Notes under the pieces: model-generated
What the model saw: only the letters and a program-made list of their open reading frames with translations
Database searches by the model: none
Told to the model about the DNA's origin: nothing
DNA from: a virus
Strand: one strand, 5' to 3'
DNA length: 64,000 nt
IMG/VR virus record: IMGVR_UViG_3300035142_000037
Coordinates: 1 to 64,000 of that record
Position numbers and translations under genes: made by a program
Shown here: positions 17,994-57,296 of the stretch, in pieces
Layout of the letters: each line of letters begins with the position of its first letter
Numbering within the stretch: the first letter of the stretch is position 1

Positions 17994-19807
17994 AACTAAT
18001 AGATCAACTCACTAATCCTCTCGGAAAAATAAGTGATAAGATGATGCGGTTTTCTGACCGACTGCGTAAAGTCGGTGAGAAAATGGCACAGGCTGGGAAA
18101 AAAATGACGCTCATGGTCACGGCACCGTTAGCATTATTGGGAAAACAGGCAATACAGACAGCCGGTGAATTCGAAAAAAATCAAATAGCTCTTGAGTCTA
18201 TGTTGGGCAGTGCGGAAAAGGCAAAGGTATTATTACAGGATCTGGTAGAATTTTCAGCAAAAACACCTTTTCAACTACCCGGATTAATCGAAGGCACAAA
18301 ACAACTTCTTGCCTTTGGTATTCCGGCGGATGACATAATTGAAAAGCTGCAAAATCTTGGGAATATTGCCCAAGGTGATCAGGGAAAACTTACTGGATTA
18401 GTCCAGGCATTTGGGAAAATACGGGCCAAAGGTGTGGCTTCCATGCGTGAACTTAACATGATGATTAATGCAGGTGTACCGATTATGAGAGCACTTTCGG
18501 AAGAATTCGGGGTAGCAGAAGCCGAAATATTCGAGATGAGCAGACGTGGTGAATTAACTTTTGACCGGATAGACAAGGCTATAACAAATCTTACAACCGG
18601 GACTGGGATGTTTGCAGGAATCCTTGAAAAGCAATCTCAATCACTGTTAGGGCTTTGGAGTACCCTGCTGGATAATTTTAGCCTATTAGGGAAAGAAATT
18701 GCCGAAACCTTTATGCCAGCTCTAAAAGGATTAATAAACGGGGTTATGGGAATTGTAAAATGGTTTCGTTCGCTATCAGAGGGTACTAAACATTTGATTG
18801 GTATTATAATTGCTTTGACTGCGGCGATAGGGCCGCTTATGATAGTACTCGGTAAGCTATTTATTTTAATTGCCACTGGTATGGGACCAATCGGTCTTAT
18901 ATTAGCGGGATTGGCTGCATTAGCAGCAGCAATAATTGGTGTCGCAGTGGCTATTGATAGACATAATAATCGCTTTCGGATAGCTGCACAAAGATATAGA
19001 GATCAGAAAGAAAGAGTCAGTGATCTTGCAGACGAATACGAAGCATTACAGAAAAAAACAAATCGAACGAGGGAAGAGCAAGACAGATTTTTGAGTTTGC
19101 AACGTCAATTAAAAACGGCAATTGGGGATAATGCCTTTGTGCTTAATGAAATGACAGGAGAACTTGAATTAAATAGAAAAGAATTTGAGCGATGGAGTGA
19201 GGAATTAAGAATCCTTGAAGTAAAAAATTTACAAAGGGATTTAGAAAAATTAGAAAAAAGATTACAAAAACAAATAAAAACTACAGAATGGGCAAGAAAA
19301 GAAGTAGCAGAGGCAAAAAAAGAAGGTCCGCATATGTGGGGTCCAGAGGTATATGAAGCGCAATTAGAAAAATCTTTAAAAGCTGAATTAGCTATAGAAA
19401 GTCAAATTGAAACAACAAAATCACTTATTGAAGAAATTATGAAAGGCATGATAGGAATGGAGGATTTTGCAGAAGAAGAAGAAAAAATAAAAACTGAAAC
19501 TGAAGAAACAAATAAAGAACTAAAAACTATGGCGGACCTTTTGGATGAAATAGATCAAAAAATGAAACAGCGGATTGTAGGAGAATTATTGAGAGGAAAA
19601 AGAGAAAGATTTTTCAGAACTACAGATGTGATTAAGCGATTTGAAAAAATGCAAAAAGAATCTAAGTCTAAAGTTGATGTATCAATAAAGGTTGAGGCAG
19701 AAGAGGGAACTTCTGCAAAAATTTCAAAAGTAGAAAAATCAGGAGAGGAAGCTGATGTATCTATTGAAGCTAAAAGTTATATAGGCATGCATCAGTTTAC
19801 AATGTAA
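17960..19807 (+). CDS. tail tape measure protein
   Basis: 615 aa; central hydrophobic segment, long coiled-coil C-terminal half, position after the chaperone pair. Confidence 0.85.
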   Translation: MATQYSVSVLLKLIDQLTNPLGKISDKMMRFSDRLRKVGEKMAQAGKKMTLMVTAPLALLGKQAIQTAGEFEKNQIALESMLGSAEKAKVLLQDLVEFSAKTPFQLPGLIEGTKQLLAFGIPADDIIEKLQNLGNIAQGDQGKLTGLVQAFGKIRAKGVASMRELNMMINAGVPIMRALSEEFGVAEAEIFEMSRRGELTFDRIDKAITNLTTGTGMFAGILEKQSQSLLGLWSTLLDNFSLLGKEIAETFMPALKGLINGVMGIVKWFRSLSEGTKHLIGIIIALTAAIGPLMIVLGKLFILIATGMGPIGLILAGLAALAAAIIGVAVAIDRHNNRFRIAAQRYRDQKERVSDLADEYEALQKKTNRTREEQDRFLSLQRQLKTAIGDNAFVLNEMTGELELNRKEFERWSEELRILEVKNLQRDLEKLEKRLQKQIKTTEWARKEVAEAKKEGPHMWGPEVYEAQLEKSLKAELAIESQIETTKSLIEEIMKGMIGMEDFAEEEEKIKTETEETNKELKTMADLLDEIDQKMKQRIVGELLRGKRERFFRTTDVIKRFEKMQKESKSKVDVSIKVEAEEGTSAKISKVEKSGEEADVSIEAKSYIGMHQFTM

Positions 19808-21129
19808 TGAGTTGGAAAGATAATCTTTTACAGGCAAGTTTTAGGGGCATTCCGTTTCATGTTCAATCACATGAATATAGCGGGGGCCGGAGAACGTCTA
19901 TATTCTACTTGCTCTATGGAGACAAAGATTTTGAGCCTGTTGTAGAAGATTCAGGCCCGGAAGCGGATGAGTTTTCTATTGAGGCTTATGTAATACAAAA
20001 CGATGCAAGTGATCTTGATTATTTTCCAAGACGAGATAACTTAATTGCAGCCTTAAAAAAATTAGGCCCTGGACTTCTTATTCATCCTTATTTGGGTGAA
20101 ATTAATGTTGCAGTACTCGGGCGTTTTTCTATGTCCGAAACCTGGGAAGAGGGAGGAATTGCCAGGTTTTCAATTACTTGTGCCCGAACTGTAAAAGCAA
20201 CACCTAAGCGTACATCTGAATCAGATTCAAGCATTGACGATAAAGTAGATGACGTAAATGATATAACAGTGGATAATTTTTCTGATCAATATGAACCGGG
20301 AGGTGTTTTTCAGCAGAATACAGCAGATACTTTCACGGCAAATTTAGAAAGTCTTTCTGAACAAATATACCAGATTCAAAGCATAATAAATACATATACA
20401 TCGGAAGCAGTGGCAACAATAGCAGCAATAATACAGACTATTGATAATATAATAGACGCACCATGTGATATAGCAATTGCCGGGCTAAATGCCATGAACC
20501 AGATGCTTAATGTTGTTGGGTTGGGTGTGGAAACGATTACAGGTGGTGTAGTAGGTGGTTGCTCAGGCGTAAGAAGAAATGCTGTAATTCTTGATGGATC
20601 ATATGTAACGGAGAAAATTGGTATTACTACTGCAAAAGCAATTGCCACAGTGGTTGAAAAGGATGCAACGGAAGGGATATATGTTACGGAAGAGCAGGCG
20701 ACTAATGTATTAGCGTTGAAAGATATGAATGATATTTTTCTCATAGGGGTAGGTTGCAAAATCCTTATACGTACAGATTTTACAAGCCAGGAAAAACTTA
20801 TTGAGTATATGAACTTTTTCAGCGATCTTATGGACTATGTTCTTGATCGGATAGGCGATGAGGACACAGACATTAAGACTACCGATATTTATAATGCCTT
20901 ACAGGATTTAAGAAACTTATTTGTAAACGAAATGCTGGAAAAGAATACCAGTATTGCGAAAACAAACGATTATATAGTTCCTGCCGGAAATATGTCATTA
21001 TTACAGCTTGCTTATGATTTGTATGAAGACTTGGACAGGTGCTGTGAAGTTTATGACCGGAATAAGCCCTTGGTGAAACATCCTGGATTTCCGCCCGGGG
21101 GAGAAACGTTGAAGGTATTAAGTGAGTAA
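19807..21129 (+). CDS. DNA circulation protein (Mu gpN/gp43-like)
   Basis: 440 aa; N-terminal W...L..ASFRGIPFHV....GGRR signature. Confidence 0.8.
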   Translation: MSWKDNLLQASFRGIPFHVQSHEYSGGRRTSIFYLLYGDKDFEPVVEDSGPEADEFSIEAYVIQNDASDLDYFPRRDNLIAALKKLGPGLLIHPYLGEINVAVLGRFSMSETWEEGGIARFSITCARTVKATPKRTSESDSSIDDKVDDVNDITVDNFSDQYEPGGVFQQNTADTFTANLESLSEQIYQIQSIINTYTSEAVATIAAIIQTIDNIIDAPCDIAIAGLNAMNQMLNVVGLGVETITGGVVGGCSGVRRNAVILDGSYVTEKIGITTAKAIATVVEKDATEGIYVTEEQATNVLALKDMNDIFLIGVGCKILIRTDFTSQEKLIEYMNFFSDLMDYVLDRIGDEDTDIKTTDIYNALQDLRNLFVNEMLEKNTSIAKTNDYIVPAGNMSLLQLAYDLYEDLDRCCEVYDRNKPLVKHPGFPPGGETLKVLSE

Positions 21130-21130
21130 A

Positions 21131-21170
21131 CCTCCACAAAATGTGGAACTACTTCCACAAAATGTGGAGG
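21131..21170. promoter_or_regulatory. tandem palindromic operator-like sites (2 x TCCACAAAATGTGGA)
   Basis: Two identical 15-bp palindromes 20 bp apart, 9 bp upstream of the -35 at 21179. Confidence 0.5.
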
Positions 21171-21178
21171 TTGTTCCA

Positions 21179-21297
21179 TTGACTTTTTTTGTGATGTTTA
21201 GTAATATAAAATAAGATCTGGTTACGGCAGGTTTAATAAAAGGCTATGAGATCGGGTGAGGTGCCGTAACCACCCCCCGTTCTGATAGCCTTTTTTA
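21179..21297 (+). promoter_or_regulatory. promoter TTGACT-17-TAATAT + leader L1 (interleaved helices, U-tract)
   Basis: Helix A 21220-21229/21262-21271 (10 bp); helix B 21238-21247/21285-21294; U-run then SD and ATG 21313. Confidence 0.55.
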
Positions 21298-21312
21298 ATG
21301 AAAGGAAGAATT

Positions 21313-21690
21313 ATGCAGATAATTATTAATTATTTTAAATCACTCACATTATTTGACATCATTGTAATATGCATGTCAACGTTAAGTAGTATTATTTCTT
21401 TAATACATTTTATAACCGGGAAAATATATATTAAGAGATTAATCAGATTATTTATCTATATAGCTATATGGACTATTATCCCTGTTACAATCTGGTTGTA
21501 TATTATAAATAATTACAATTTACGTATAGTACAAATTTGGTGTGCAATAGTTTTAATAGAAGTTATTTATTTCCTTTGTTTTTTCCCATTATTAGGATTA
21601 AAAGTACTGATTTTATGTACAAAAGATTGGTTAAAAGGTGGGTATATGTTTGAAAATGCAGAAGATTACTTTTGTATTTTTAAGGATTAA
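21313..21690 (+). CDS. multi-pass membrane protein (moron)
   Basis: ATG at 21313 after AAAGGAAG; about 4 hydrophobic helices; own promoter and leader inside the tail operon. Confidence 0.6.
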   Translation: MQIIINYFKSLTLFDIIVICMSTLSSIISLIHFITGKIYIKRLIRLFIYIAIWTIIPVTIWLYIINNYNLRIVQIWCAIVLIEVIYFLCFFPLLGLKVLILCTKDWLKGGYMFENAEDYFCIFKD

Positions 21691-21772
21691 TATCTACCTG
21701 CCGTTCTGATATAATTAAATTTTGCAAAAATGTTGCAACTGAATTGCAAATAAAATCAGTAAAAAATAATCC

Positions 21773-21801
21773 TTGCAATAAAGCTTAAACACTGCTATAA
21801 T
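21773..21801 (+). promoter_or_regulatory. promoter TTGCAA-17-TATAAT, short leader for 21813
   Basis: Same -35 context (AATCCTTGCAAT) and ATCAGTAAAA box; three extra TTGCAA hexamers at 21722-21750. Confidence 0.5.
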
Positions 21802-21812
21802 TAACTCATTAA

Positions 21813-22871
21813 ATGGCCGATGTAAAGCTAAAAGTTAATAAAAATATATACGCTGCCTGGACAAAAGTAAATATCTATTCAACTATGGATGCCATATCCG
21901 GAATAGCAGAATTGGAGTCAGTTAATTTTTATCAGGGCAATCTATCCGATTGGGAATTCAAACTCGGTGATAATTTTCAACTGCTGATAGATGATCAACT
22001 TGTAATGACCGGGTATATAGATCAGATTGATCTAATCTACAAAAACCGGATGCATTTTCTTAAATTGATACTCCGTGATAAAACGGCAGACCTGGTAGAT
22101 TGCAATTGGAATGAAGATGTTACGGAATGGAAAAACCAGACAGTATTGAATCTCACGCAGAATCTTTGCAATCCTTTCAATATTCAGGGTGCCAGTGATT
22201 CAGAAGTTGCCGGGGAAATTGGAAAGATTATTGAAACTTTCAAAATAAATGAGGGTGAATGTATTTCTGACGCAATAATGCGATATTGTAATCAGTTTGA
22301 TTTGATTCCCCTGTCTTATGGTGATGGATATCTTACTCTTTCAAAAAGTACAAATACTAAAAAAAGCTATGATGCAATTGATCTGAATGCAAATGTGGTT
22401 TCCAGGATTGCTGTATATAGCAACTTAGAAAGATTTAGTAATTATATAGTAAAGGGGATGGGATGTGGTACGGATCAAAAAAATAATTATACAGATTACA
22501 TACAGCCTGCTGGGAGTGTTGAAGACTCGGTAATACAACGATATAGACCAATAACTTTTTTCGATGACGTAGTCACGGATGCGGGAAAGTGTGAAGAGCG
22601 GGCAAAATGGATTAAGCAGGTCAGGGCCGGTCAATCAAGGGGACTTAATTATACGGTTGTAGGATGGGGTCAATCAAATGGGGATATATGGCGGATTAAC
22701 AGGATAGTCCGGGTATCGGACCCTATGGCCGGAATTGACAAGGATATGCTTATATCTAGTGTGCGGTATACGTTTAGGAATGAAGAAGGCACAAAAACAG
22801 AGTTGACAGTGGTAGATAAAAACACGTATACTAAAGTACAGAGAGATATCAAAACGGAGTTTGATCTATGA
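21813..22871 (+). CDS. baseplate hub protein (Mu gp44 / late control D-like)
   Basis: 352 aa; position after the DNA circulation protein; near-leaderless start after a TTGCAA-17-TATAAT promoter. Confidence 0.7.
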   Translation: MADVKLKVNKNIYAAWTKVNIYSTMDAISGIAELESVNFYQGNLSDWEFKLGDNFQLLIDDQLVMTGYIDQIDLIYKNRMHFLKLILRDKTADLVDCNWNEDVTEWKNQTVLNLTQNLCNPFNIQGASDSEVAGEIGKIIETFKINEGECISDAIMRYCNQFDLIPLSYGDGYLTLSKSTNTKKSYDAIDLNANVVSRIAVYSNLERFSNYIVKGMGCGTDQKNNYTDYIQPAGSVEDSVIQRYRPITFFDDVVTDAGKCEERAKWIKQVRAGQSRGLNYTVVGWGQSNGDIWRINRIVRVSDPMAGIDKDMLISSVRYTFRNEEGTKTELTVVDKNTYTKVQRDIKTEFDL

Positions 22872-29147: not shown

Positions 29148-29172
29148 AGGCAGCCGTGTGCTGCCTTTTTTT
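29148..29172 (+). terminator. intrinsic terminator
   Basis: AGGCAG-7nt-CTGCCT followed by T7. Confidence 0.7.
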
Positions 29173-29176: not shown

Positions 29177-29325
29177 TTGACTTTTTTTCCGGTATCTGAT
29201 ATATTATGTATGTGTATGTACCGGTTTGCTTCATATGATACTCCTTTGTATTTTTCTCCTTTCTTCTTAGCATACACATTTATCCGGTTCGGCAGTTCCC
29301 CCATTCTGCCGACCGGAAATTTTTG
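29177..29325 (+). promoter_or_regulatory. promoter TTGACT-16-TATATT + leader with 12-bp hairpin and U5
   Basis: Hairpin TCCGGTTCGGCAG/CTGCCGACCGGA at 29283-29317 followed by AATTTTT, upstream of 29341. Confidence 0.5.
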
Positions 29326-29340
29326 AAAGGCGGTTGAATA

Positions 29341-30550: not shown

Positions 30551-31170
30551 AAAAGGTTAATGGAGAAAATATATATTATAGTCAGAAAAATAATGCATTT
30601 GTCGAAGTATTTCAAGATTATTTTTTTCGGGAATATGAAAAGGTAAGAGGGGAAGCAACCGGGGAGGTTAAAAAGACTTTAGATGACCTTCGTAGAAAAA
30701 TATTTCTACACGTCACATGTTTCCCTACCAGTATGGCGGATGGTATACATTCATGTGGCTGGCCGATGGATATTTTCCCTCCAGGTTTACAGCCCGAAGA
30801 TGGGATTATGTGCATACTTAATAACCCTGTGATTGCAAAAAAATTACACCAGGGTTCTCGATACGTACCGCCATCCTGGGCGTATAATGAGATACCGGAT
30901 TATTATCCTACTGCAATTAATGCAGCATGGGGAAATAAGCAGGTATGCAAATTTGAGCGAAATATTACAATACAGGAATATTCCGGGTATATCGATCATG
31001 GTTATTGCATAGCATATGCGCATCCTGGACATGTTATAATAGGGAAGGGGTATGATATTGTGAATGGCAAGACATTTAGGGTTTACAATGATCCATATCG
31101 AAAACCTAAAATGATAGAACCTGCGAAAACATTAGCCTGGGGAGTAGTGATTTTTCCGTTCCAAAAATAA
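30547..31170 (+). CDS. putative papain-like cysteine peptidase (candidate endolysin)
   Basis: 207 aa; candidate Cys (..HVTCFPTS..) and His (..HPGHVIIGKGYD..NDPY) arrangement; last gene of the membrane-protein cluster. Confidence 0.45.
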   Translation: MKKVNGENIYYSQKNNAFVEVFQDYFFREYEKVRGEATGEVKKTLDDLRRKIFLHVTCFPTSMADGIHSCGWPMDIFPPGLQPEDGIMCILNNPVIAKKLHQGSRYVPPSWAYNEIPDYYPTAINAAWGNKQVCKFERNITIQEYSGYIDHGYCIAYAHPGHVIIGKGYDIVNGKTFRVYNDPYRKPKMIEPAKTLAWGVVIFPFQK

Positions 31171-31215
31171 CCAAGGGGGTGGCAGTGCTCCCCCCCCCCC
31201 CCCCGTCCTTACCCG
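31171..31215. terminator. convergent-operon hairpin containing a C15/G15 run
   Basis: GGGGGTGG-7nt-C15; on the - strand the hairpin is followed by UUGGUUAUUUUUGG. Confidence 0.4.
31190..31204. repeat. homopolymer C15 (G15 on - strand)
   Basis: Counted directly: C at 31190-31204. Confidence 0.95.
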
Positions 31216-31274
31216 GACAGTATCCAGGCGATTACCCTCATCTAGCGTCGGGCGGCTGATCCGGGTTATTAAGG

Positions 31275-31520
31275 CTACCGGACGAGACCTTTTTTTGACC
31301 AACAATAATAAAACCCAAATGATCCCCATAAACCTATGGCGATATTTATTCCGCTTTTACCCATTGTAATATGGAATTCTATATTGAAAGTAGTTAGCCG
31401 CCAATTGAAAAATATTGCACCTCGCCGATTGAAATTCTTATCAACAATTTTCCAACTTGCATGAGCATGTATTTCATTTAGCAGATTTCGCTTAAAATAT
31501 ATTTCTTCTTTTATGATCAT
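31275..31520 (-). CDS. hypothetical protein with C-terminal hydrophobic segment
   Basis: 81 aa, GGAGGAA SD on the - strand. Confidence 0.5.
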   Translation of the reverse strand: MIIKEEIYFKRNLLNEIHAHASWKIVDKNFNRRGAIFFNWRLTTFNIEFHITMGKSGINIAIGLWGSFGFYYCWSKKGLVR

Positions 31521-32111: not shown

Positions 32112-32140
32112 AATATACATCAATATGATATAAAAGTCAA
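32112..32140 (-). promoter_or_regulatory. leftward promoter TTGACT-17-TATATT
   Basis: Read on the - strand; drives 32091-31275 operon. Confidence 0.5.
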
Positions 32141-32148
32141 TAGGTCTC

Positions 32149-32177
32149 TTGACTTTTTTCACACAATATGATATATT
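32149..32177 (+). promoter_or_regulatory. rightward promoter TTGACT-17-TATATT
   Basis: Back-to-back with the leftward promoter (-35 boxes 8 bp apart). Confidence 0.5.
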
Positions 32178-32195: not shown

Positions 32196-32396
32196 ATGAC
32201 CATTAATCAATTAATAGAACGATGTAAAAGTGTTAAAGGTTTCCACCCACATCGTAGAGCAATATACCGGGAACTTCGAAACCTTAATATTCCCCGGGTT
32301 GGATATCGGGGGGAGTATAATATTACCATGGCACAGGCAAAGGAAATATTAAAGCATCTGCATACACACCGGGGAAGGCCGAGAAAGGAAATATAG
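32196..32396 (+). CDS. small basic DNA-binding-like protein
   Basis: 66 aa, GGAGG SD, first rightward gene; C-terminal RGRPRK (AT-hook-like). Confidence 0.55.
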   Translation: MTINQLIERCKSVKGFHPHRRAIYRELRNLNIPRVGYRGEYNITMAQAKEILKHLHTHRGRPRKEI

Positions 32397-32715: not shown

Positions 32716-32744
32716 TTGACAAATAAATCATACTGTGTTATATT
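32716..32744 (+). promoter_or_regulatory. promoter TTGACA-17-TATATT
   Basis: Consensus-like boxes preceding the purine-rich RNA. Confidence 0.5.
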
Positions 32745-32750
32745 ATATAA

Positions 32751-33003
32751 TAGAAAGGGTGAGGGAAACAGGGACGGAGGTTAATTGACAAGCAGCCGGG
32801 CGGTCGGAAGTGATCGCATCGGGGTTGAGGGCAGAAACCTGGAGGTGAGTACAGGCGGAAAGCGGGAAACCGAATTAGCCCAGGGCCAACCGAAACGGAG
32901 TGATTGAGAGAAGGAGTAACCAGGGAAACAGGGGCGTGTGACTTGAATACATACACTGCCGTTCAACTCGGCAGGTTTCCAGACGAAAGTCAGAGGAGGA
33001 ATC
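32751..33003 (+). ncRNA. purine-rich structured leader RNA (contains E1)
   Basis: Starts about 7 nt after TTGACA-17-TATATT; stops in all + frames; GNRA-capped hairpins (CGG-GAAA-CCG, GAC-GAAA-GTC); duplicated GGGAAACAGGG. Confidence 0.45.
32924..32980 (+). ncRNA. tRNA-like element E1 (acceptor-like stem + hairpin + T-arm mimic, no D-arm)
   Basis: GGAAAC/GTTTCC closing stem; GTGTG-9nt-CATAC hairpin; CTGCCG-TTCAACT-CGGCAG T-arm-like hairpin; 23 nt before ATG 33004. Confidence 0.4.
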
Positions 33004-37108: not shown

Positions 37109-37291
37109 ATGAAAAAAACACCAATTAAGGGGTGGGTAGTGCGGGACGATCTAAGTCTTGAATTTACAGGCCATTTTTGCCCGCATTGCATCCCCTTGCA
37201 AAAATTGATAGAACTAGAGTTTACCTTTACATGTCCTGTCTGTAACTGGACATGGGAGAAAGATATGAAACAAGGTGAACTTTTTACTTGA
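37109..37291 (+). CDS. Zn-ribbon-like small protein
   Basis: 60 aa; CPHC ... CPVC. Confidence 0.4.
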   Translation: MKKTPIKGWVVRDDLSLEFTGHFCPHCIPLQKLIELEFTFTCPVCNWTWEKDMKQGELFT

Positions 37292-37407
37292 CTTTTTTCC
37301 CTGGTTTTCGTATATTATCAATGGTCATGGGGATTAAGCCCATTTGGGTGTTACCGGGGATACCCCATGACCAATGGTCCTTGGTAACATCCGAACGGGC
37401 TTTTTTA
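37288..37407 (+). promoter_or_regulatory. promoter TTGACT-17-TATATT + leader L2 (interleaved helices, U-tract)
   Basis: Helix A 37323-37332/37363-37372 (10 bp); helix B 37336-37341/37397-37402 extended by 37346-37355/37383-37392; U6. Confidence 0.6.
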
Positions 37408-37444
37408 TTGGAGGTAAGTATGATTGAAAATGGGAGAGGAATCC

Positions 37445-37567
37445 ATGAAATGTCCAGAATGTGAAGGGAATGTTAAGAATTGCCCTTTAGCTCCTTATTG
37501 TGAATGTAAATACTGCCGAGAATCTGGAAAGGTTTCTTTTCAGAACATGATACAAATAATTGTTGAT
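37445..37567 (+). CDS. hypothetical Cys-rich micro-protein
   Basis: 40 aa; CPEC...C...C.C..C; GGGAGAGGA upstream. Confidence 0.3.
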
Positions 37568-37600
37568 ATGATAAGAAGATTTTTGAAAAGTATATAATAA

Positions 37601-38196: not shown

Positions 38197-39123
38197 ATGA
38201 TAAGGAAACCATCAGAACTGAAAGCAAAAAAACTTTTCAAAGGGCTTATTGCCGGGTTACCTGGCATAGGCAAGTCAACACTTGGCGTATCCGCCCCGGC
38301 CGCACTGCTTATAGATGCGGATGATGGATGGGATCGGATACCTGCCCAATTCAGGGTACCGGTAATTCAGCCACAAAGTTATGAGGAAATTTTACAGGAT
38401 TTGAAACCGGATAATTCAGAACTTAAGGATTTTGAAACTCTGGTTTTTGATACCGGGGGGTCCCTGCTTACTTACATGAAATCCTGGGCAATCAAAAAAG
38501 ATATGAAGAACGGACAAAAAGACGGAGTGACATTATCCATGAGAGGATATGGTACAATTGGGCGGGAATTTATGCGGTTAATGGATCACTGTATTTATGC
38601 TTTGCAGAAAAACATTATCGTTATTTTCCATGTGATTGAGAAGTCTGATAATGATGAAACGGTTTACAGGATTGATGCAGAGGGGCAGACAAAAAATAAC
38701 ATCTGGAAAATCATGGATTTTGGTGGGCTTATGTTGAGTTCCAATAACAAGCGGATAATTGGATTTTCTCCGACCGATAAATATTATGCAAAGGGAACCC
38801 ACGGATTGACCGGGACTCATGAGATACCCAATCCTATGAAAACCGGACAAAATACATTCCTTGCTGATCTTTTTATACAGCTTAATGATAATATTGAAAG
38901 CGAATCACAATATGCGGAAGACTATAAAATAGTCATGAATGAAATCCGTTCTAAAATTGCTGGAATAAAAGACATAAAGACAGCAGAAAAAGCATATGAA
39001 GAAATCAAGGACCTGGAGCATGTATTTTCATCCAAACAGGAAGCCAGTACTTTAATGAAAGAAAAACTTGCCAGTATAGGGATGACGTTTAGGAATGGCA
39101 AATTCACAAAGGTGAAAAAATGA
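38197..39123 (+). CDS. AAA_24 / Sak4-like RecA-type ATPase
   Basis: 308 aa; Walker A GLPGIGKST; Walker B-like LVFDT. Confidence 0.8.
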   Translation: MIRKPSELKAKKLFKGLIAGLPGIGKSTLGVSAPAALLIDADDGWDRIPAQFRVPVIQPQSYEEILQDLKPDNSELKDFETLVFDTGGSLLTYMKSWAIKKDMKNGQKDGVTLSMRGYGTIGREFMRLMDHCIYALQKNIIVIFHVIEKSDNDETVYRIDAEGQTKNNIWKIMDFGGLMLSSNNKRIIGFSPTDKYYAKGTHGLTGTHEIPNPMKTGQNTFLADLFIQLNDNIESESQYAEDYKIVMNEIRSKIAGIKDIKTAEKAYEEIKDLEHVFSSKQEASTLMKEKLASIGMTFRNGKFTKVKK

Positions 39124-43473: not shown

Positions 43474-43583
43474 TTGACAATTCTTCCGGTATTTGCTATA
43501 CTGTGATTATCAGGGTGCAGACTGAATGAGCCGTATCACGGCTGGAGGGCTGCACCCCGAAGGCCATGAGACGGCTTTTTTTA
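43474..43583 (+). promoter_or_regulatory. promoter TTGACA-17-TATACT + leader L3 (interleaved helices, U-tract)
   Basis: Helix A 43513-43520/43550-43557; helix B 43529-43534/43571-43576 with competing local partner 43538-43543; U7. Confidence 0.5.
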
Positions 43584-44185: not shown

Positions 44186-44258
44186 CGGGGTGTCGCCAAG
44201 GTGGTAAGGCTAAGGGTTACATACCTGACATGCAGGGGTTCAATTCCCCTTGCCCCGA
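44186..44258 (+). ncRNA. tRNA-like element E3 / pseudo-tRNA (Gln-type D-arm, defective anticodon stem)
   Basis: Acceptor CGGGGTG/TGCCCCG, D-arm GCC-AAGGTGGTAA-GGC, T-arm identical to E2, anticodon stem only 3 bp. Confidence 0.45.
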
Positions 44259-44432
44259 CGCTCAACAGCCGGGATATAAGTAAGGATCTTGCCTATAAGC
44301 AAGATCACCTGCTGAACCAGGCGAGACAGGAATGCCGGCTTAATGAATCTTGGGAAATATTGCCGAGAGGCAATCGTGAGGCAAGCACTAGCCGTCCAAA
44401 CTGATCATGCGACGTAAAACTTGCCAGATCGT

Positions 44433-45138: not shown

Positions 45139-45321
45139 ATGGACCTTGAAAAAGTATATTATGATACAGAAGGAAGGAAACGGAATATTTTGCAACTTGT
45201 AAAAGAAGAGCCCGAATGGGCAGCGAACAGAATTCAGGAAGGTGAAAAATATAAAAAGATGTGGGAAGATATAATTAATAACTTGATATGCATAAGAAAT
45301 CAAATTAAGGAGATAGAATGA
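45139..45321 (+). CDS. hypothetical protein
   Basis: 60 aa, AGGAGGAA SD. Confidence 0.5.
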   Translation: MDLEKVYYDTEGRKRNILQLVKEEPEWAANRIQEGEKYKKMWEDIINNLICIRNQIKEIE

Positions 45322-46368: not shown

Positions 46369-46496
46369 TTGACACACCTGCAAAATTATGATAAATTAAG
46401 ACAGGGCAAAATACAGTAGTATAAAGAAGGCATAATTTAGCCCGGGGGACTACTGCCCGGCACCTGCCCGGTGATTGCTAAGTTATGCCTTTTTTA
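46369..46496 (+). promoter_or_regulatory. promoter TTGACA-17-TAAATT + leader L4 (interleaved helices, U-tract)
   Basis: Helix A 46414-46420/46449-46455; helix B 46429-46441/46477-46489 (13 bp, one G-U); U6. Confidence 0.6.
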
Positions 46497-46726: not shown

Positions 46727-46861
46727 ATGGATAAAGAACAATTATATAACAGACTAGATGAAGATGAAGAATTAACAGATGAGGAGAAAAGAGAAATATA
46801 TTTTACTGAAATAGCATTTGCAGAAGAAGAGGAGCGTTGGAAGGAAAATAATGGCCCATGA
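46727..46861 (+). CDS. hypothetical acidic small protein
   Basis: 44 aa; start region is the second copy of the 37-nt repeat. Confidence 0.4.
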   Translation: MDKEQLYNRLDEDEELTDEEKREIYFTEIAFAEEEERWKENNGP

Positions 46862-47693
46862 AAAGAAAGGATATGGAATAATTCCTACCTGGATAATGAA
46901 AGCAAATTTATCTCATAAGGCAAAATTGATACTTATGTGTTTAGCATGTTATGCAGGTGATAAAGATTATTGTTATCCTTCTATTTCTACTATTTGCTCT
47001 GATTTGAAAATAGGCAGAACCACTGCTATTAATATTTTAAAAAAAGCAGAAGAAAAAAAGTTTATAAAAATAGAAAAATTATATCCTGGAAATCCGTTTA
47101 AAAAGCACAACAAATATACGTTATTATTTAAAAACGGTAGTTCTATATGCAGGACCACCGGAAGTCCCAATGCAGGACCACCGGAAGTCCCAATGCAGGA
47201 CCATGAAAAACATGAAAATCCAGTCCCAATGCAGGACTCTCGAAGTCCCAATGCAGGACTCTCGAAGTCCCAATGCAGGACGGAGAATATTAACATTAAT
47301 ATAATAACAGAAAAGGATTTGCAAAAAACTAGAGAGAATGATCTTAAAAAGCTTAAACAGATTACATTAGAGATTTTTAAAAAAATCTCTCCTGAACAAT
47401 TTAAGACAAAAAACGATTTTGCAAGGGAAGGAAGTGCAATAAAGAAATTCTGCGAAGATGCAGTTGAAAGATTCAAAGATTTCAATGAACAAAAAAAATG
47501 GGTTGAAGACATAACGGATATTTACAGAAAAATCTGTTTTTCAGAGATTAAGCATAAATGGCTAAATGATTCAGTTTTTATCCCATCCCGGATGAGATCG
47601 AAAGGAATTTGGCCGGAAGTAGTTAATGCACTTAAAGAAAAACGTCCTAAAAACAAAAAAATGCCTGATTATTCCAGTTATAAGGAGGATTAA
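46851..47693 (+). CDS. replication initiator / replisome organizer with internal iterons
   Basis: N-terminal winged-helix-like YGIIP..I......AKLI...L..YAG....C.PS...I...L.....T....L; five 15-bp iterons inside the gene (lambda O-like layout). Confidence 0.7.
   Translation: MAHEKKGYGIIPTWIMKANLSHKAKLILMCLACYAGDKDYCYPSISTICSDLKIGRTTAINILKKAEEKKFIKIEKLYPGNPFKKHNKYTLLFKNGSSICRTTGSPNAGPPEVPMQDHEKHENPVPMQDSRSPNAGLSKSQCRTENININIITEKDLQKTRENDLKKLKQITLEIFKKISPEQFKTKNDFAREGSAIKKFCEDAVERFKDFNEQKKWVEDITDIYRKICFSEIKHKWLNDSVFIPSRMRSKGIWPEVVNALKEKRPKNKKMPDYSSYKED
47146..47281. repeat. iteron array (5 x GTCCCAATGCAGGAC + partial), candidate origin
   Basis: Copies at 47164, 47187, 47223, 47245, 47267; each has GTCC...GGAC dyad; AT-rich stretch follows at 47282-47310. 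Confidence 0.8.
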
Positions 47694-48413
47694 ATGAATT
47701 GTAAAAGCTGTGGAAAAGAAATAGAAAAAGGTGAATTCTGTAATGAATATTGTAAAAAAGCATATATGATAAATTCGTCATTGACAGATATTGAAAAAAC
47801 TGAAACGGTAGAAGAAAATCCGATTATAATAACGCCTGTTATTAATTTGTTCGGGAAACGATATTCAGAATGTTCTTTTGAAAATTTTAAATGTAAAACA
47901 GAAGATCAGAAAAAAGTGTTAAATCGTATCATAGAAATTACGGAACAAATAAAAAATGGGAAAGGATTAATATTTGCATTTATAGGCGGATGGGGAACTG
48001 GAAAAGATCATCTTGCAGCGGCAATAGTGAGAAAACTTGCTAATTATAGAATCATTCACACAACTGTAATGAGAATGTCTAGAGAAATAAGAGAAGCCGG
48101 GAAAAATGATTCAAAATTTAAACAGCAAGATATTATTGATTCGTTTTCACTTTGTGATTTTCTTATACTTAATGAAATTGGAGTACAATCGGTAACTGCG
48201 TTTGAACGGAATATTATTCATGAAATAATTGATAGTCATTACAGAGCTATGACAAGTGTATTACTTATATCGAATGAACAGAAAGAGAAATTTCAGGAAT
48301 GTATAGACGCTCCAGGATTAAACCGAGTATGGGATCGTATAGATGAAAAGCTTTTATTTACATGGGGAAGCGAAAGAAAAAATGAACGGATGAAGCAAGT
48401 AAGGAAGGTGTAA
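47694..48413 (+). CDS. DnaC/IstB-like helicase loader ATPase with N-terminal Zn-ribbon
   Basis: 239 aa; Walker A GGWGTGKDHL, Walker B-like FLILNEIG. Confidence 0.75.
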   Translation: MNCKSCGKEIEKGEFCNEYCKKAYMINSSLTDIEKTETVEENPIIITPVINLFGKRYSECSFENFKCKTEDQKKVLNRIIEITEQIKNGKGLIFAFIGGWGTGKDHLAAAIVRKLANYRIIHTTVMRMSREIREAGKNDSKFKQQDIIDSFSLCDFLILNEIGVQSVTAFERNIIHEIIDSHYRAMTSVLLISNEQKEKFQECIDAPGLNRVWDRIDEKLLFTWGSERKNERMKQVRKV

Positions 48414-53448: not shown

Positions 53449-53783
53449 TGGAGGAAAAAATGAACATACAGAAGCTAAAAGATATAAAAGAATCTATCAA
53501 AAACGAATGGGAAATAATACTATCAGGGATAGCTCTTATCCAGGATTCAAAAAACTATACAAAACGAATGCAGCATGGTATATCAAACCAGGAATATGAA
53601 CAAAAATGTATCAAGGCTACTAATGATATAGCTGCAATATTAATTAAGATGAAAGTATATGAGTCAGTACTTGCAGATACCTGGAGGGCACGGTTATTGA
53701 TAAAAGCAAACAAGATGCATAAAGCGTTGCTTAACCTAAAAGATGATAAGAAAGGGCTTGACAAAAAGATTGAAAAAAGATAG
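53448..53783 (+). CDS. hypothetical protein
   Basis: 111 aa; 3' end overlaps a promoter. Confidence 0.5.
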   Translation: MEEKMNIQKLKDIKESIKNEWEIILSGIALIQDSKNYTKRMQHGISNQEYEQKCIKATNDIAAILIKMKVYESVLADTWRARLLIKANKMHKALLNLKDDKKGLDKKIEKR

Positions 53784-53888
53784 ATTATGATAACAGATAC
53801 CTGGGGAATTAAGAAAGGCTTTAAGGCCGGATGGGTTTCCCCCAGGTAGCCCAACCCGTAAGGGAATCCGGCGTTAAAGCTTTTTTTA
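53758..53888 (+). promoter_or_regulatory. promoter TTGACA-17-TAGATT + leader L6 (interleaved helices, U-tract) upstream of tRNAs
   Basis: Helix A 53799-53806/53840-53847; helix B 53818-53832/53866-53880 (7+7 bp); U7; leader contains CCCAGGTAGCCCAAC resembling the 5' part of the next tRNA. Confidence 0.6.
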
Positions 53889-53889
53889 T

Positions 53890-53963
53890 GCCTGGGTAGC
53901 CCAACAGGAAGAGGCAACTGGTTTAAGCCCAGTAAAGTGGAAGTTCAAATCTTCTCCCAGGCA
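53890..53963 (+). tRNA. tRNA, anticodon UAA (Leu by anticodon) but class I (5-nt variable loop)
   Basis: Acceptor GCCTGGG/CCCAGGC, anticodon stem ACTGG/CCAGT, loop TTTAAGC, T-arm GGAAG-TTCAAAT-CTTCT, discriminator A. Confidence 0.75.
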
Positions 53964-53964
53964 A

Positions 53965-54038
53965 GCCGGAGTAGCCCAATTGGAAGAGGCGCTTGATTTA
54001 GGATCAAGAAGTTGTGAGTTCGAATCTCACCTTCGGTA
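53965..54038 (+). tRNA. tRNA, anticodon UAG (Leu by anticodon) but class I (5-nt variable loop)
   Basis: Acceptor GCCGGAG/CTTCGGT (two G-U pairs), anticodon stem CTTGA/TCAAG, loop TTTAGGA, T-arm GTGAG-TTCGAAT-CTCAC. Confidence 0.7.
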
Positions 54039-54040
54039 TA

Positions 54041-54126
54041 GGGAGTATATACCGTAAGTAGTAGCGGGGCTGACTGTAGATCAGTTGAGCTTAGTCTCTC
54101 GGGTGGTGCGACTCCATCTACTCCCA
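54041..54126 (+). tRNA. class II tRNA, anticodon GUA (Tyr-like), atypical T-loop
   Basis: Acceptor GGGAGTA/TACTCCC, anticodon stem GCTGA/TCAGT, loop CTGTAGA, long variable arm, T-loop TGCGACT, 4 nt between acceptor and D stem. Confidence 0.6.
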
Positions 54127-54140: not shown

Positions 54141-54902
54141 ATGCGTTATTTACCAATAATCCTTGCACGTATGAATAGTACCCGATTACCCGGTAAAGTA
54201 ATGATGGACTTATGCGGGAAACCGGTATTAGAGCGGATAATTGAGAGAATAAGGAGAGTATCACAGATTGAGCATATATGTGTTGCTACAACTTTAAACA
54301 ATTGTGATAAAAAAATAATTGAGTTTTGCGTAGAAAAAGGAATTATATGGTTTGCTGGTAGCGAAAAAGATGTATTGCATAGATTTGTTACGGCTTCGCA
54401 AAATATAGAATCAGGAGGATATGAACATGATTACATCATAGATATCACTGCCGATTGTCCCCTTGCCTGCCCGGAAATAATTGGTAACCTTATTTATGCA
54501 TGTGAACGATACCAGCCTGATTATGCAAGTAATATAGGTGTGCGTTCTTTTTGTGATGGCTTTGATGTCCAGATTGTAAAAAAAGAAGTGCTGTACGATA
54601 TCTATGACAAAGTACAGCCTTACCATAGATGTCATAGTGCTTGGAATGTACTTGCCTATGCACAGGGAATCAAGGTTTATAATCTCACCCCGGCAAAACA
54701 AGAATACTGGATGCCGGAGGTAGGCTTAACTCTTGACACAGCTATGGATTTGGTAGTTATCAGGCAGATTTATGAACAATTTGAGCATCGGGATTATGTT
54801 TTCAACCATTACGATATATGTGAATTACTTCTTACACGTCCTGAAATACTGGATGTTAATAAGAACGTAAAGCGAAAAACGCCCGGAAAGGATGTGTCAT
54901 GA
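54141..54902 (+). CDS. NulO cytidylyltransferase-like protein (SpsF/PseF/NeuA family)
   Basis: 253 aa; N-terminal IILARMNSTRLPGKV...L.GKP motif; AAGGAGG SD 5 nt after tRNA. Confidence 0.8.
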   Translation: MRYLPIILARMNSTRLPGKVMMDLCGKPVLERIIERIRRVSQIEHICVATTLNNCDKKIIEFCVEKGIIWFAGSEKDVLHRFVTASQNIESGGYEHDYIIDITADCPLACPEIIGNLIYACERYQPDYASNIGVRSFCDGFDVQIVKKEVLYDIYDKVQPYHRCHSAWNVLAYAQGIKVYNLTPAKQEYWMPEVGLTLDTAMDLVVIRQIYEQFEHRDYVFNHYDICELLLTRPEILDVNKNVKRKTPGKDVS

Positions 54903-54981
54903 TAGCATGTATTGCAATAATATTATCTATAATAGCGATTTTGATTAATATACTCAGGTGTATTTTATAGCAGGAAGGGAA

Positions 54982-55947
54982 ATGGCAATAATGTATAATG
55001 TACTTATTATAGGATGTGGTTCAATCGGGGCACTTAAACCAGACAAGTATGATTCCCCGGATACTGAAAATATACTTACACATTGTCATGCGGTGAAGAA
55101 ACATGATAAGTTTAGACTATGGGGGGTAATGGATAGCGATTATGATAAAATGATGAAAGCTGCACGAAAATGGGGTTGTATGGGTTTTCCTGGATTCAAA
55201 GCTTTAGGGAAAATAGATGACGAAATAGATATTGCAGTAATAGCAACACCTATCGAAACACATTATCGCATTTACAGGAAGATAAAAGACCGGAATCTCA
55301 AGGCTATTATTATAGAAAAACCTTGCGGTATTGATTATGATATGTGTAATTTAATGAAAGGCGAAAGAGTGGTAGTCAATTATACCAGGCGGTTTCTTCC
55401 GAGATATAAAAATTTCAAGAAAGAATTTGAAAGCGGGGCATGTAAAATATTATCCTGTGTTGTGTATTATGTTCGGGGGCTTTTAAGAGATGGGTGCCAT
55501 GCTATTGATCTTTGTAGGTATTTTTTCGGGGAGATATTGGATGTCAAGAAGTTAAGCACTGGCCCGGACGATTATTCCCCGGATGATACAACCGATTGTA
55601 TATGGATGCAAGCTGAAAGATGCCCGAATATTGTTATAATCCCTGGAGATGGAAGAGTCGCAGACTGTTTTGATTTCGAGATTATGACAGATAAAGGAAT
55701 GATTTGCCTTTACGAACATGGTGCAAAGCTTTTTATAAGAGGAATTGAAAAGGAGAGAGTTTACGGTGATTATGATTCTTTAACCGGCAAGCAGATAAAG
55801 TATAATTTCGATATGGGCTTTAGCAGGCAGGCTTTATTATCTTTATATGATAATGTAGCCGGAGTTATTGAAGGCAAAGAAAAACCAATATGTACGGTGG
55901 AAGATGCACTGATAGTGCATGAAATTATAGAGAAAGTGAGGAATTAA
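54982..55947 (+). CDS. Gfo/Idh/MocA-family oxidoreductase
   Basis: N-terminal Rossmann VLIIGCGSIG; ATG at 54982 after AGGAAGGGA. Confidence 0.7.
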   Translation: MAIMYNVLIIGCGSIGALKPDKYDSPDTENILTHCHAVKKHDKFRLWGVMDSDYDKMMKAARKWGCMGFPGFKALGKIDDEIDIAVIATPIETHYRIYRKIKDRNLKAIIIEKPCGIDYDMCNLMKGERVVVNYTRRFLPRYKNFKKEFESGACKILSCVVYYVRGLLRDGCHAIDLCRYFFGEILDVKKLSTGPDDYSPDDTTDCIWMQAERCPNIVIIPGDGRVADCFDFEIMTDKGMICLYEHGAKLFIRGIEKERVYGDYDSLTGKQIKYNFDMGFSRQALLSLYDNVAGVIEGKEKPICTVEDALIVHEIIEKVRN

Positions 55948-57296
55948 TGCTATTTGATAACATAGAAAACCATGGGAAAAATAACCGGATAGATTACATG
56001 CCGGATCAGTATTATGGTGGATACACAAAGGAAGCGGCACATAGAATTGGTGATAAAATAGGAAAAATGACAGGCTATAATATTTATTCATACTATCGGG
56101 GTAATGGAAGTAAACATTTTTGGGGTGGCCTGGAAGTTCAGAAACTGGAAAAAGCTTTTGAGAAGTATCTTGGGGATGGGGTGAAATGTCTTGCTGTTAA
56201 TTCCTGTACATCTGCTCTTATAATAGCATGTGGAGCGGTAGGGATTGAGCCGGGTGATGAGGTAATTGTGAGTCCTTGGTCAATGTCCTGCTCTGCAACT
56301 GCACCGATGCATTACGGAGGAATCCCGGTATTTACGGATATTGAAGATCAGTATTTTTGTCTGGATCCGGATGATATTGAGAGAAAGATTACAGAAAAAA
56401 CAAAGGCAATTATAGCCGTGGACCTTTTCGGGCAGCCTGCGGATTATGAAACAATTTATGAAAAAATTGGAAATAAAAAGATAGATAGAATTATGAAAAT
56501 AGTAGATCAAAATAATATATATATTATTGAAGATGCAGCCCAGGCAATAGGCTCATTTAATTTGAGAAGAGGAAAAGAAGCCGGGACATTTGGGCATATA
56601 GGTTGTTTTTCTTTTACCCAGGGTAAACATATGACAGCCGGTGAGGGGGGTATGATTGTTACAAGGAATAAGGAACTTTATGCGAAATGTGCTTTATTAC
56701 GGAATCATGCAGAGGCGGTAATGAATGATCTTGATAGCGAATTCGAAAACGATACAATACATCCTGTCGGACAATATTCTAATCTTATAGGCTTTAATAT
56801 GCGTATGACAGAAATCCAAGCAGTTATACTACAAGAACAGTTGAAATATTTAGATGATATCGTGAAATTGCGAAAAAGAAATGTGCGATTGTTAATGAAA
56901 AATATGCCATCAACAATTTCATTATACCCAACCAGGAAAGGATATTCACACAGCTTTTATGTCATGCCCTTAAAATATACCGGGAAAGATATAAAACGAT
57001 TTGTAGACCTGGTAAAAAGAAATCTTAAACCAGAACGAAATCGAGTTGACAGGGGGGTCCCTATAGGAGCGGGATACATCAAGCCGCTTTATAAGTTTCC
57101 TTGTTTTCAAGGAACTAATATGCACTGGGCAATCAAGGAGCGGGATTATTCAAGGGTAAGTTGTCCGAACGCAGAACGTTTAAATGGTGAATTGATTATA
57201 TGCTTGCTTCATGGGCTGGATTTATCTGAACAAGATATTAAAGATATTTGCTATGCTTTTCAGAAAGCTGACGAAATTGTAAACGGAGGTTTATGA
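55947..57296 (+). CDS. DegT/DnrJ/EryC1-type PLP aminotransferase (PseC/LegC/SpsC-like)
   Basis: 449 aa; ..IEDAAQA.GS.. and SF...K..T.GEGG motifs; about 60 aa N-terminal extension. Confidence 0.85.
   Translation: MLFDNIENHGKNNRIDYMPDQYYGGYTKEAAHRIGDKIGKMTGYNIYSYYRGNGSKHFWGGLEVQKLEKAFEKYLGDGVKCLAVNSCTSALIIACGAVGIEPGDEVIVSPWSMSCSATAPMHYGGIPVFTDIEDQYFCLDPDDIERKITEKTKAIIAVDLFGQPADYETIYEKIGNKKIDRIMKIVDQNNIYIIEDAAQAIGSFNLRRGKEAGTFGHIGCFSFTQGKHMTAGEGGMIVTRNKELYAKCALLRNHAEAVMNDLDSEFENDTIHPVGQYSNLIGFNMRMTEIQAVILQEQLKYLDDIVKLRKRNVRLLMKNMPSTISLYPTRKGYSHSFYVMPLKYTGKDIKRFVDLVKRNLKPERNRVDRGVPIGAGYIKPLYKFPCFQGTNMHWAIKERDYSRVSCPNAERLNGELIICLLHGLDLSEQDIKDICYAFQKADEIVNGGL

Follow-up and report, generated by a model that had tools for sequence, protein, structure and literature searches.

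Genome context and anatomy of the five cassettes

The DNA analysed here (the window) comprises positions 1–64,000 of IMG/VR record IMGVR_UViG_3300035142_000037, a 64.5-kb contig, and represents nearly the entire genome of an uncultivated tailed phage, in which almost all genes are encoded on the + strand. Five cassettes, referred to as L1, L2, L3, L4, and L6, were identified in this genome, each of which consists of a promoter (TTGAC[AT]-17-TAnnnT) followed by a leader of 73–94 nucleotides (nt), a hairpin (B), and a U6–7 tract, with a Shine-Dalgarno sequence or a tRNA gene directly after the U-tract in all five. The cassettes had been noticed in an earlier reading made from the letters alone (the sequence-only reading), and direct inspection of the sites located all five where it had placed them. 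The distance from the U-tract to the start codon is 13–16 nt in the four copies linked to open reading frames (ORFs), i.e. within the range of 11–26 nt found across all cassettes scanned, and the tRNA-Leu gene lies 2 nt from the U-tract of L6. Neither a further promoter nor an ORF is present between terminator and gene in the cassettes. The ATG of a 126-amino acid (aa) membrane protein ORF is located 16 nt past the U-tract of L1, and a GGAGG Shine-Dalgarno sequence begins 5 nt past that of L2.

In all five copies, the predicted 5'-most bases of the transcript (A5') match the loop inside hairpin B (A3') by 7–11 Watson-Crick pairs. The strands are interleaved in the order A5' < B5' < A3' < B3' in every copy, which is the order of an H-type pseudoknot, and both helices covary. 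Helix A comprises 11, 11, 8, 7, and 9 base pairs (bp) and stem B 13, 25, 10, 17, and 18 pairs in L1, L2, L3, L4, and L6, respectively. Every helix given in the sequence-only reading is present, though somewhat longer than first listed. The first-listed pairs were, for L1, GGTTACGGCA/TGCCGTAACC (A) and AAAAGGCTAT/ATAGCCTTTT (B); for L2, GGTCATGGGG/CCCCATGACC (A) and AAGCCC/GGGCTT plus GGGTGTTACC/GGTAACATCC (B); and for L6, CCTGGGGA/TCCCCAGG (A), with one mismatch in B. In L3 they are GGGTGCAG/CTGCACCC (A) and AGCCGT/ACGGCT (B), and in L4 CAGTAGT/ACTACTG (A) and GGCATAATTTAGC/GCTAAGTTATGCC (B). With the transcription start set 7 nt past the -10 hexamer, the RNA of all five window copies opens with A5' (E5' in L4, see below), which begins 0–5 nt from that predicted start. 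A3' is mostly the loop of an inner hairpin, C, within B. L4 and L6 form three-way junctions of B, C, and D, and L4 has a second long-range helix, E, in which GGGCA (at about +1) pairs with UGCCC from the D loop. In the well-defined cassettes, 0–8 nt separate A5' from the foot of B. The sequence-only reading had included neither helices C, D, and E nor the extreme 5' position of A5'.

Hairpin B together with the U6–7 tract carries all the sequence features of an intrinsic terminator, in agreement with its earlier assignment as a putative one: the stems are closed by GC pairs and end 0–2 nt before T6–T7 in all five copies. They depart from the compact hairpin (stem of ~5–14 bp, loop of 3–8 nt) in having stems of 10–25 pairs and structured interiors of 15–37 nt, and a simple terminator consensus scan misses four of the five because the stems are long and the interiors structured.

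A sixth promoter unit was observed at 29177–29340, just downstream of a plain terminator at 29148–29166. Its 5' AUGUGUAUG pairs with CAUACACAU ~55 nt downstream, and the hairpin CCGGUUCGGCAG..CUGCCGACCGG plus AAAUUUUU comes after this pairing; the arrangement is thus nested, not interleaved. This unit is probably the L5 that is absent from the earlier numbering. In L6, the leader interior at 53843–53856 (CCAGGTAGCCCAAC) resembles part of the 5' acceptor/D-arm of the tRNA-Leu gene (53889–53905, GCCTGGGTAGCCCAAC), which hints that this leader may be derived partly from a tRNA fragment.

Table 1. Positions of cassette parts and of other genes in the window, and helix A sequences in leaders of each type (three-digit labels denote contigs of related phages)
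Feature	Position	Strand	Sequence or remark
L1 promoter	21179–21207	+	TTGACT-17-TAATAT
L1 helix A 5' strand	21219–21229	+	TGGTTACGGCA; about +5 from predicted start; 11 bp, p<0.0005
L1 stem B 5' strand	21238–21251	+	
L1 helix A 3' strand	21262–21272	+	loop of inner hairpin CGGG../..CCCG
L1 stem B 3' strand and U-tract	21281–21296	+	T6 at 21291–21296
L2 promoter	37288–37316	+	TTGACT-17-TATATT; start of the feature as first reported
L2 helix A 5' strand	37322–37332	+	TGGTCATGGGG; at predicted start; 11 bp, p<0.0005
L2 hairpin B 5' strand	37336–37361	+	AAGCCC, bulge, UUUGGGUGUUACC, GGGGAU; 3 nt past A5'
L2 helix A 3' strand	37363–37373	+	CCCCATGACCA; apical loop of B
L2 hairpin B 3' strand and U-tract	37377–37406	+	T6 at 37401–37406
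L3 promoter	43474–43502	+	TTGACA-17-TATACT with TG
L3 helix A 5' strand	43513–43520	+	GGGTGCAG; p=0.001; orthologs in L002, L208, L383
L3 stem B 5' strand	43528–43534	+	GAGCCGT; alternative local pairing with ACGGC 43536–43540
L3 helix A 3' strand	43550–43557	+	CTGCACCC; conserved GAAGGCC next
L3 stem B 3' strand and U-tract	43571–43582	+	T7
L4 promoter	46369–46397	+	TTGACA-17-TAAATT with TG
L4 helix E 5' strand	46404–46408	+	GGGCA; about +1; within invariant AGGGCAAAATAC
L4 helix A 5' strand	46414–46420	+	CAGTAGT; covariation; p=0.0035
L4 stem B, then stem C, 5' strands	46425–46446	+	B 46425–46441; C 46442–46446
L4 helix A 3' strand	46449–46455	+	ACTACTG; loop of hairpin C
L4 stem C 3' strand, then hairpin D	46456–46473	+	C 46456–46460; D 46461–46464/46470–46473
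L4 helix E 3' strand	46465–46469	+	TGCCC; loop of D
L4 stem B 3' strand and U-tract	46477–46495	+	T6
L6 promoter	53758–53786	+	TTGACA-17-TAGATT
L6 helix A 5' strand	53798–53806	+	TACCTGGGG; 9 bp, p=0.0015
L6 stem B 5' strand	53814–53832	+	
L6 helix A 3' strand	53840–53848	+	CCCCAGGTA; inner-hairpin loop; second inner hairpin CCC-GUAA-GGG next
L6 stem B 3' strand and U-tract	53866–53887	+	T7; tRNA-Leu from 53889
L2 A5' ortholog, L002			TAGGCTATAGGGA
L2 A5' ortholog, L005			AAGTGTGTAGGTT
L2-type A5'/A3', window			UGGUCAUGGGG/CCCCAUGACCA
L2-type A5'/A3', L002			UAGGCUAUAGGGA/UCCCUAUAGCCUA
L2-type A5'/A3', L005			AAGUGUGUAGGUU/AACCUAUACACUU
L3-type helix A, window			GGGUGCAG
L3-type helix A, L383			GGUGCCGC
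L3-type helix A, L002			GGGAUGCAG
L3-type helix A, L208			GUGGUGC
L1-type helix A, window			UGGUUACGGCA
L1-type helix A, L002			GGUCACGG
L7-type (new) helix A, L381			UCGGCCGG
L7-type (new) helix A, L384			UCGGGCAG
Terminase	1092–2408		
Capsid	10010–11428		
Tail sheath	15622–17142		
Baseplate	19807–22871		
Sak4-like annealing protein	38197–39123		
DnaD/DnaC-like loaders	46818–48413		
tRNAs	53889–54126		
Pseudaminic-acid-type sugar cluster	54–63 kb		

Chance expectation and conservation in related phages

In total, 19 sites on the + strand of the window match TTGAC-N16–18-TAnnnT, and a run of at least five T residues follows 73–94 nt past the -10 hexamer at only five of these (21179, 37288, 43474, 46369, and 53758). 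When the 5' segment of each leader was shuffled 2000 times and scored for Watson-Crick runs of the same length with the interior of the hairpin, a helix as long as A was found with p values of 0.0035 or below in every cassette (Table 1). A detector built on RNAduplex energies was far too permissive, and contiguous-helix criteria were therefore adopted: a stem B had to stand next to a run of five or more T residues, and the 32 nt upstream of B had to form with the interior of B a helix A of at least 7 bp made up of Watson-Crick pairs alone. On the + strand of the window, this detector returned nine matches, including all five cassettes, and 30 dinucleotide shuffles of the window gave 0–4 weak matches each; the outcome of this control, which the sequence-only reading had proposed, supports that reading. 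A background of 5.8 Mb from unrelated loci contained one promoter-linked match, corresponding to an expectation of ~0.02 per window, compared with the five observed. The folding of all five leaders is also more stable than that of dinucleotide shuffles (z of -3.7 to -5.3). The cassettes might be explained as ordinary promoters and ordinary hairpins with an accidental helix A, given that a 7–8-bp match can arise by accident and that detector matches without a promoter occur at ~28 per Mb of background; however, the shuffle tests, the background scan, and the covariation described below strongly contradict this explanation, which is effectively refuted.

Homologs of the Sak4 and DnaC proteins led to the metagenomic contigs L002, L003, L005, and L381–L385, and a DNA pattern scan of metagenomes and genomes added L208, L224, L250, and L271, which are real among the matches listed, the remainder being mostly chance; the DnaD-like protein was too divergent to serve as an anchor for locus searches. 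A blastn search with the 36–40 kb region against INPHARED phages gave no match, a Sak4-based locus search in IMG/VR found none, and three DNA-pattern scans of IMG/VR yielded chance matches only; the phage group seems to be absent from IMG/VR. The nearest cultured relative by terminase is Thermoanaerobacterium phage THSA-485A, with an amino acid identity of only 44%, and Clostridium phages come next, so that a Clostridia-like host is plausible. The interleaved-leader architecture was not found in THSA-485A.

On the contigs of the relatives, orthologous leaders follow promoters of the same kind, and in all of the 18 or more orthologs and paralogs a GC-closed stem is followed by a U-run, as in the window. 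For the L4 type, seven sequences were aligned. With the pseudoknotted structure, 94.7% of the cells of this alignment are paired, compared with 73.9% after shuffling (0 of 500 as high), and 21 of the 38 pairs have changed on both sides, compared with 4–9 in slid controls. Helices A, B, C, and D all keep their pairing through compensatory changes. In helix A, 100% of the cells are paired, five of the seven pairs have changed on both sides, and the covariation score is 0.878, compared with 0.227 in shuffled alignments (0 of 500) and at most 0.116 in slid controls. The strands of helix E are exact complements in all seven orthologs, with one compensatory change (GGGUA/UACCC in L005, compared with GGGCA/UGCCC). 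RNAalifold independently gives the three-way junction of B, C, and D, and the structure is assigned to the + strand RNA because G-U pairs are frequent.

For the L2- and L3-type leaders, alignment with MAFFT did not agree with the structure, and these families are therefore given as helices per sequence (Table 1). The sequence of helix A differs among orthologs of the L1, L2, L3, and L7 types, yet it stays fully complementary. The pairing of the 5' leader with the apical part of B, as proposed at the outset, is thus real and evolutionarily maintained, and the expected covariation of helices A and B is borne out in the orthologous L4-type leaders. The sequence-only reading had deduced compensatory change from the unrelatedness of the leaders within one genome; that argument is no proof in itself, and it is the orthologous leaders of the relatives that establish such change.

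The leaders are not tied to the genes behind them. L4-type leaders precede six different first genes, one small protein family has a leader of the L3 type in L208 and of the L4 type in L002, and the L1-type leader of L002 precedes a homolog of the window ORF 45139–45321. These data indicate that the leader module is portable and independent of the downstream gene. No second genomic copy of A5' or A3' was found in the window, and cross-complementarity among the five leaders does not exceed chance.

More promoter-leader-terminator units were observed in the relatives, at 287–400 and 3960–4110 of L003, 11831–11950 of L381, 3217–3340 of L383, and 5018–5150 of L384. The unit at +287 of L003 has a 13-nt terminator loop complementary to the 5' tail, and in the unit at +5018 of L384 A3' abuts B3' and the spacer is 19 nt. 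The predicted placement of the partner of the 5' tail in the relatives is more varied than in the five window copies.

Candidate mechanism and rival explanations

In stepwise folding, helix A (E plus A in the L4 type) belongs to the minimum-energy fold at 56–80 nt, and B takes over only once its 3' strand emerges. At full length, the B-state is 3–18 kcal/mol more stable than the best fold containing A, except in L3, where the A-state, which includes a GAAGGCC/GGCUUUU helix and a local hairpin, is itself the minimum-energy fold (difference of 0); the energy models used cover nested structures only. As in attenuators, an earlier-forming and less stable alternative helix is thus present, but in none of the five copies does either strand of helix A overlap a strand of B, whereas the alternative helix of a classical attenuator shares nucleotides with the terminator stem. 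Only the L3 type has an extra alternative pairing that overlaps stem B. The geometry of L2 should prevent A and the full B from coexisting, because A5' ends just 3 nt before the foot of a stem of ~25 bp whose apical loop contains A3', whereas in L4 and L6 their coexistence may be possible. Termination at B should be partial or conditional, since every transcript entering the operons must cross B, and a translational role is disfavoured because L6 precedes tRNAs.

Based on the stepwise folds, the stability of the B-state, and the geometry of L2, we tentatively favour the reading of the cassettes as operon-entry checkpoints, i.e. conditional intrinsic terminators embedded in two-state leaders in which A would hinder the closure of B; their membership in the class of leader-embedded conditional terminators as such is likely. 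The transcription start sites, actual termination, the direction of the effect of A, and the regulatory input are all inferred from sequence. A host promoter of the sigma-70 type would drive a non-coding leader ending in an intrinsic terminator before the first ribosome-binding site (the tRNA in L6). In the emerging RNA, helix A between the 5' end and the loop (plus E in the L4 type) would fold first and, placed 0–8 nt from the foot of the terminator, would tether the top of the hairpin to its base, so that stem B could close only after straining or melting A. Helix A would then act as a built-in antiterminator that has no bases in common with stem B, as a steric or topological brake, and its lifetime would set the balance between read-through and release of a leader RNA of ~85–95 nt. 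Candidate inputs are polymerase speed, temperature, a factor on the 5' tail, and titration by free leader RNA. Structures located a few nt upstream of an intrinsic terminator have been reported to suppress termination without sequence overlap, in a manner that depends on a short spacer (bioRxiv 10.64898/2026.06.17.733018). This is the closest mechanistic precedent, and the 5'-end antiterminator of pyrG is a further one.

Several points weigh against this mechanism. The transcript ends are predictions, and the regulatory inputs are candidates only. Since A and stem B share no nucleotides, the classical argument of exclusivity fails, and thermodynamics would favour A and B together wherever sterics allow. 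In the L4 and L6 types, covariation extends to C and D as much as to A and E, and the loops might dock on the 5' tail in a single compact fold instead of switching, and the L384 unit at +5018 looks suited to coexistence. Furthermore, if strain melts A rapidly enough as the stem closes, A could have no bearing on termination.

These points fit a static pseudoknotted terminator, in which A (and E) would dock on the loops of intact B, C, and D to make a compact and efficient terminator, and a phage antiterminator factor, possibly from the cassette-free early operon starting at 32149, would open the operons by making RNA polymerase resistant to termination in the way of lambda N or Q, the terminated leaders being by-products. 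We consider this explanation doubtful, although not negligible. The cassettes lie in series in one transcription direction, downstream of a cassette-free divergent promoter pair at ~32.1 kb; C and D covary together with A and E; the three-way junctions of L4 and L6 and the 19-nt spacer of the L384 unit could permit coexistence; and the lambdoid PR' promoter is constitutive and terminated just downstream until Q acts, its short RNA being functional (PMC7547250). On the other hand, the geometry of L2 argues against A plus the full B, L1 precedes a moron-like membrane gene within the tail module, and the leader modules are shuffled among phages of differing gene content. The searches also gave no counterpart to the required factor: none of 20 early proteins matched an antiterminator, Q, N, RinA, or sigma-like family in a non-exhaustive PHROG scan, no boxA (CGCTCTTTA-like, at most one mismatch) is present in any cassette, no motif is common to the cassettes beyond the promoter hexamers, the U-tract, and the ribosome-binding region, and no 7-mer is common to the promoter regions. 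The same results lend no support to the single regulon under a common antiterminator that the sequence-only reading had envisaged, and the small Zn-ribbon proteins it had nominated as regulators are not tied to leader type in the relatives. The one sequence close to boxA, TGCCCTTTA at 37481, is found past L2 within the first ORF of that cassette. Behind L2, a 14-codon upstream ORF (37421–37465) overlaps the start of a small CxxC...CxxC protein (37445–37597, MKCPECEG...), and the first gene behind L3 (43588–43761) also encodes a small CxxC protein (MKCNRCNFEG...).

Alternatively, the leaders might titrate themselves: terminated B-state RNA would pair in trans with nascent leaders of the same cassette, block A in cis, and raise termination, which would provide a separate, orthogonal negative feedback for each operon in the manner of multiplexed P4 CI-RNA immunity or IsrK isoforms. 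The display of A3' in a loop in most cassette types with A5' as a free tail, the lack of mutual complementarity and of recurring A strands in the genome, and the rapid diversification of A sequences that nevertheless remain self-complementary are all consistent with this possibility, and the short terminated IsrK RNA acts on its own read-through transcript (PMC4825925). It is nonetheless quite unlikely in our view, given that pairing in cis is kinetically favoured over pairing in trans, that the accumulation of leaders is an assumption of this explanation, and that avoidance of recombination between repeats accounts for the diversification equally well. A role in RNA stability or processing, whereby A would bury the 5' triphosphate against RNase J or RppH, B would be an RNase III site or a decay barrier, and the U-tract would bring about a fixed, unregulated partial termination that tunes strong promoters, agrees with the start of A5' or E5' 0–5 nt from the predicted start in all five copies, with B stems of 17–25 bp within the size range of RNase III substrates, and with the position of the hairpin next to the Shine-Dalgarno sequence. 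However, the B-state, which is the more stable one, leaves the 5' tail unpaired, a plain hairpin at the 5' end would suffice without a loop partner in the terminator, the conserved U6–7 tracts point to termination, and the tRNAs behind L6 are processed anyway; a pure role of this kind is less likely, and we regard it as improbable. A more radical form of the checkpoint would be independent of proteins, with the 5' end lassoing the terminator loop, topology deciding the outcome, and orthogonal leaders feeding back in trans to make an RNA-only timing or immunity circuit of five operons; this appears unlikely.

Comparison with known systems, other features, and significance

The cassettes are undescribed in the resources searched, in line with the initial impression that no equivalent is known. 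At the gathering threshold, Rfam 15 identified only tRNAs in the whole window, E-value scans of L2, L3, L4, and L6 gave sub-threshold matches to generic hairpins only, with no match to the C4/CI models, and no matching element was described in the literature searched. Four other identities were considered and rejected. A leader peptide (ORF 37288–37464) lacks a Shine-Dalgarno sequence, and the L002 and L005 orthologs are very different there; a palindrome acting at the DNA level is contradicted by the free covariation of the half-sites and by G-U pairs that mark the + strand RNA; a riboswitch would call for a core, and none is conserved across the leader types; and a type III toxin-antitoxin locus disagrees with the lack of tandem repeats in the leaders and with downstream genes for heterogeneous small proteins or tRNAs.

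The anatomy of the cassettes, i.e. 5'-end/terminator-loop pairing without strand overlap in multiple, portable copies, is unlike that of the named systems. Attenuators and riboswitch platforms share with them a promoter-proximal intrinsic terminator in the leader, an earlier alternative helix, and a more stable terminator fold, and a classical exchange of partners is even seen in the L3 type (B5' with its local partner, and GAAGGCC with GGCUUUU). However, helix A of the phage shares no stem nucleotides and joins the extreme 5' end to the apical loop, and the leaders, present in five sequence-unrelated copies per genome, have no conserved ligand core, leader peptide, T-box, or RAT/ANTAR. The put elements of HK022 are likewise structured RNAs just past early phage promoters, with structure conserved more than sequence and two copies per genome; unlike the cassettes, they are two adjacent stem-loops without a pseudoknot or built-in terminator and act processively on distant terminators.

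The lambdoid PR'-tR'/Q system (6S RNA, StxS) resembles the cassettes in its strong constitutive promoter, a terminator within ~100–200 nt, a long operon, and a short RNA (PMC7547250), but it is one unit and not five, has no conserved pairing of the pseudoknot type, and relies on Q, of which no homolog was seen in the scan of 20 early proteins, just as no common DNA site was seen in the promoters. In pyrG of Bacillus subtilis, the extreme 5' end of the transcript also pairs with the terminator region and prevents termination, and L4-type leaders likewise begin with GGGC; according to the account of Meng et al. (2004) in PMC4448216, the pairing strand is a non-templated poly-G made at low CTP and pairs with the 5' strand of the stem, whereas the pairing in the phage is templated, covarying, and aimed at the loop. 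Tug-of-war antitermination (Bushhouse, Fu and Lucks, bioRxiv 2026) similarly involves an upstream structure, a short spacer (0–8 nt in the phage), and no overlap, but there both strands lie upstream and are stabilised by a ligand, whereas one strand lies inside the terminator loop in the phage and no ligand is known. ToxIN type III loci have the same order of promoter, short pseudoknot-forming RNA, intrinsic terminator, and ORF; they differ in their tandem repeats and in encoding ToxN-like endoribonuclease toxins in place of diverse small proteins or tRNAs. In P4 CI RNA immunity, a short RNA from a constitutive leader governs longer transcripts from the same promoter via complementary segments, and the short leader-derived IsrK of Gifsy-1 does so through complementary leader segments. 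Both act in trans at a single locus, whereas any trans action of the phage leaders is hypothetical.

Several other features of the window were recorded. The divergent promoters at ~32.1 kb stand back to back (32140–32112 on the - strand and 32149–32177 on the + strand, both TTGACT-17-TATATT) with four small - strand ORFs on one side and the early + strand operon on the other, and the region (32112–32177) looks like a genetic switch. The first + strand gene (32196–32396) encodes a basic 66-aa protein that is Xis- or helix-turn-helix-like by eye and has no PHROG match. At 32716–33003, a very strong promoter (TTGACA-17-TATATT with TG) is followed by ~290 nt of purine- and G-rich sequence without a + strand ORF, between ORFs ending at 32608 and starting at 33004; the region has no Rfam match at the gathering threshold and may be a non-coding RNA. 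A tRNA-like gene at 44186–44259, for which ARAGORN gives an unassignable four-base anticodon (taca) and the Rfam tRNA model 33 bits, may represent a degenerate tRNA or one akin to a frameshift suppressor. Within the DnaD-like replication initiator gene, the region 47147–47281 contains two perfect tandem arrays (23 nt x 2.5 and 22 nt x 2.7), probably replication-origin iterons, and a 15-C homopolymer at 31190–31204 (G15 on the - strand), within the - strand ORF 31132–31329, could allow slippage or phase variation. The region 54141–63449, past the L6/tRNA unit, encodes PseB/PseC-like enzymes (Polysacc_synt_2, DegT aminotransferase) together with an MptE/Maf-like protein of 886 aa that carries TPR repeats, constituting a sugar pathway of the nonulosonic-acid type.

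If the checkpoint reading is true, intrinsic termination can be controlled without overlap between sensor and terminator, with the extreme 5' end of the RNA as the moving part, which would provide a natural case of the non-overlap ('tug-of-war') principle of antitermination. A clade of uncultivated phages would then use a portable promoter-leader-terminator module at the head of every early operon, and the timing of early genes would be raised as a question for phages of Clostridia-like hosts without recognisable N- or Q-type proteins. The five non-cross-reacting versions in one genome would also be a compact orthogonal set of parts for synthetic biology. Even if the cassettes are static pseudoknotted terminators, they represent an undescribed class of conserved RNA with strong covariation support.

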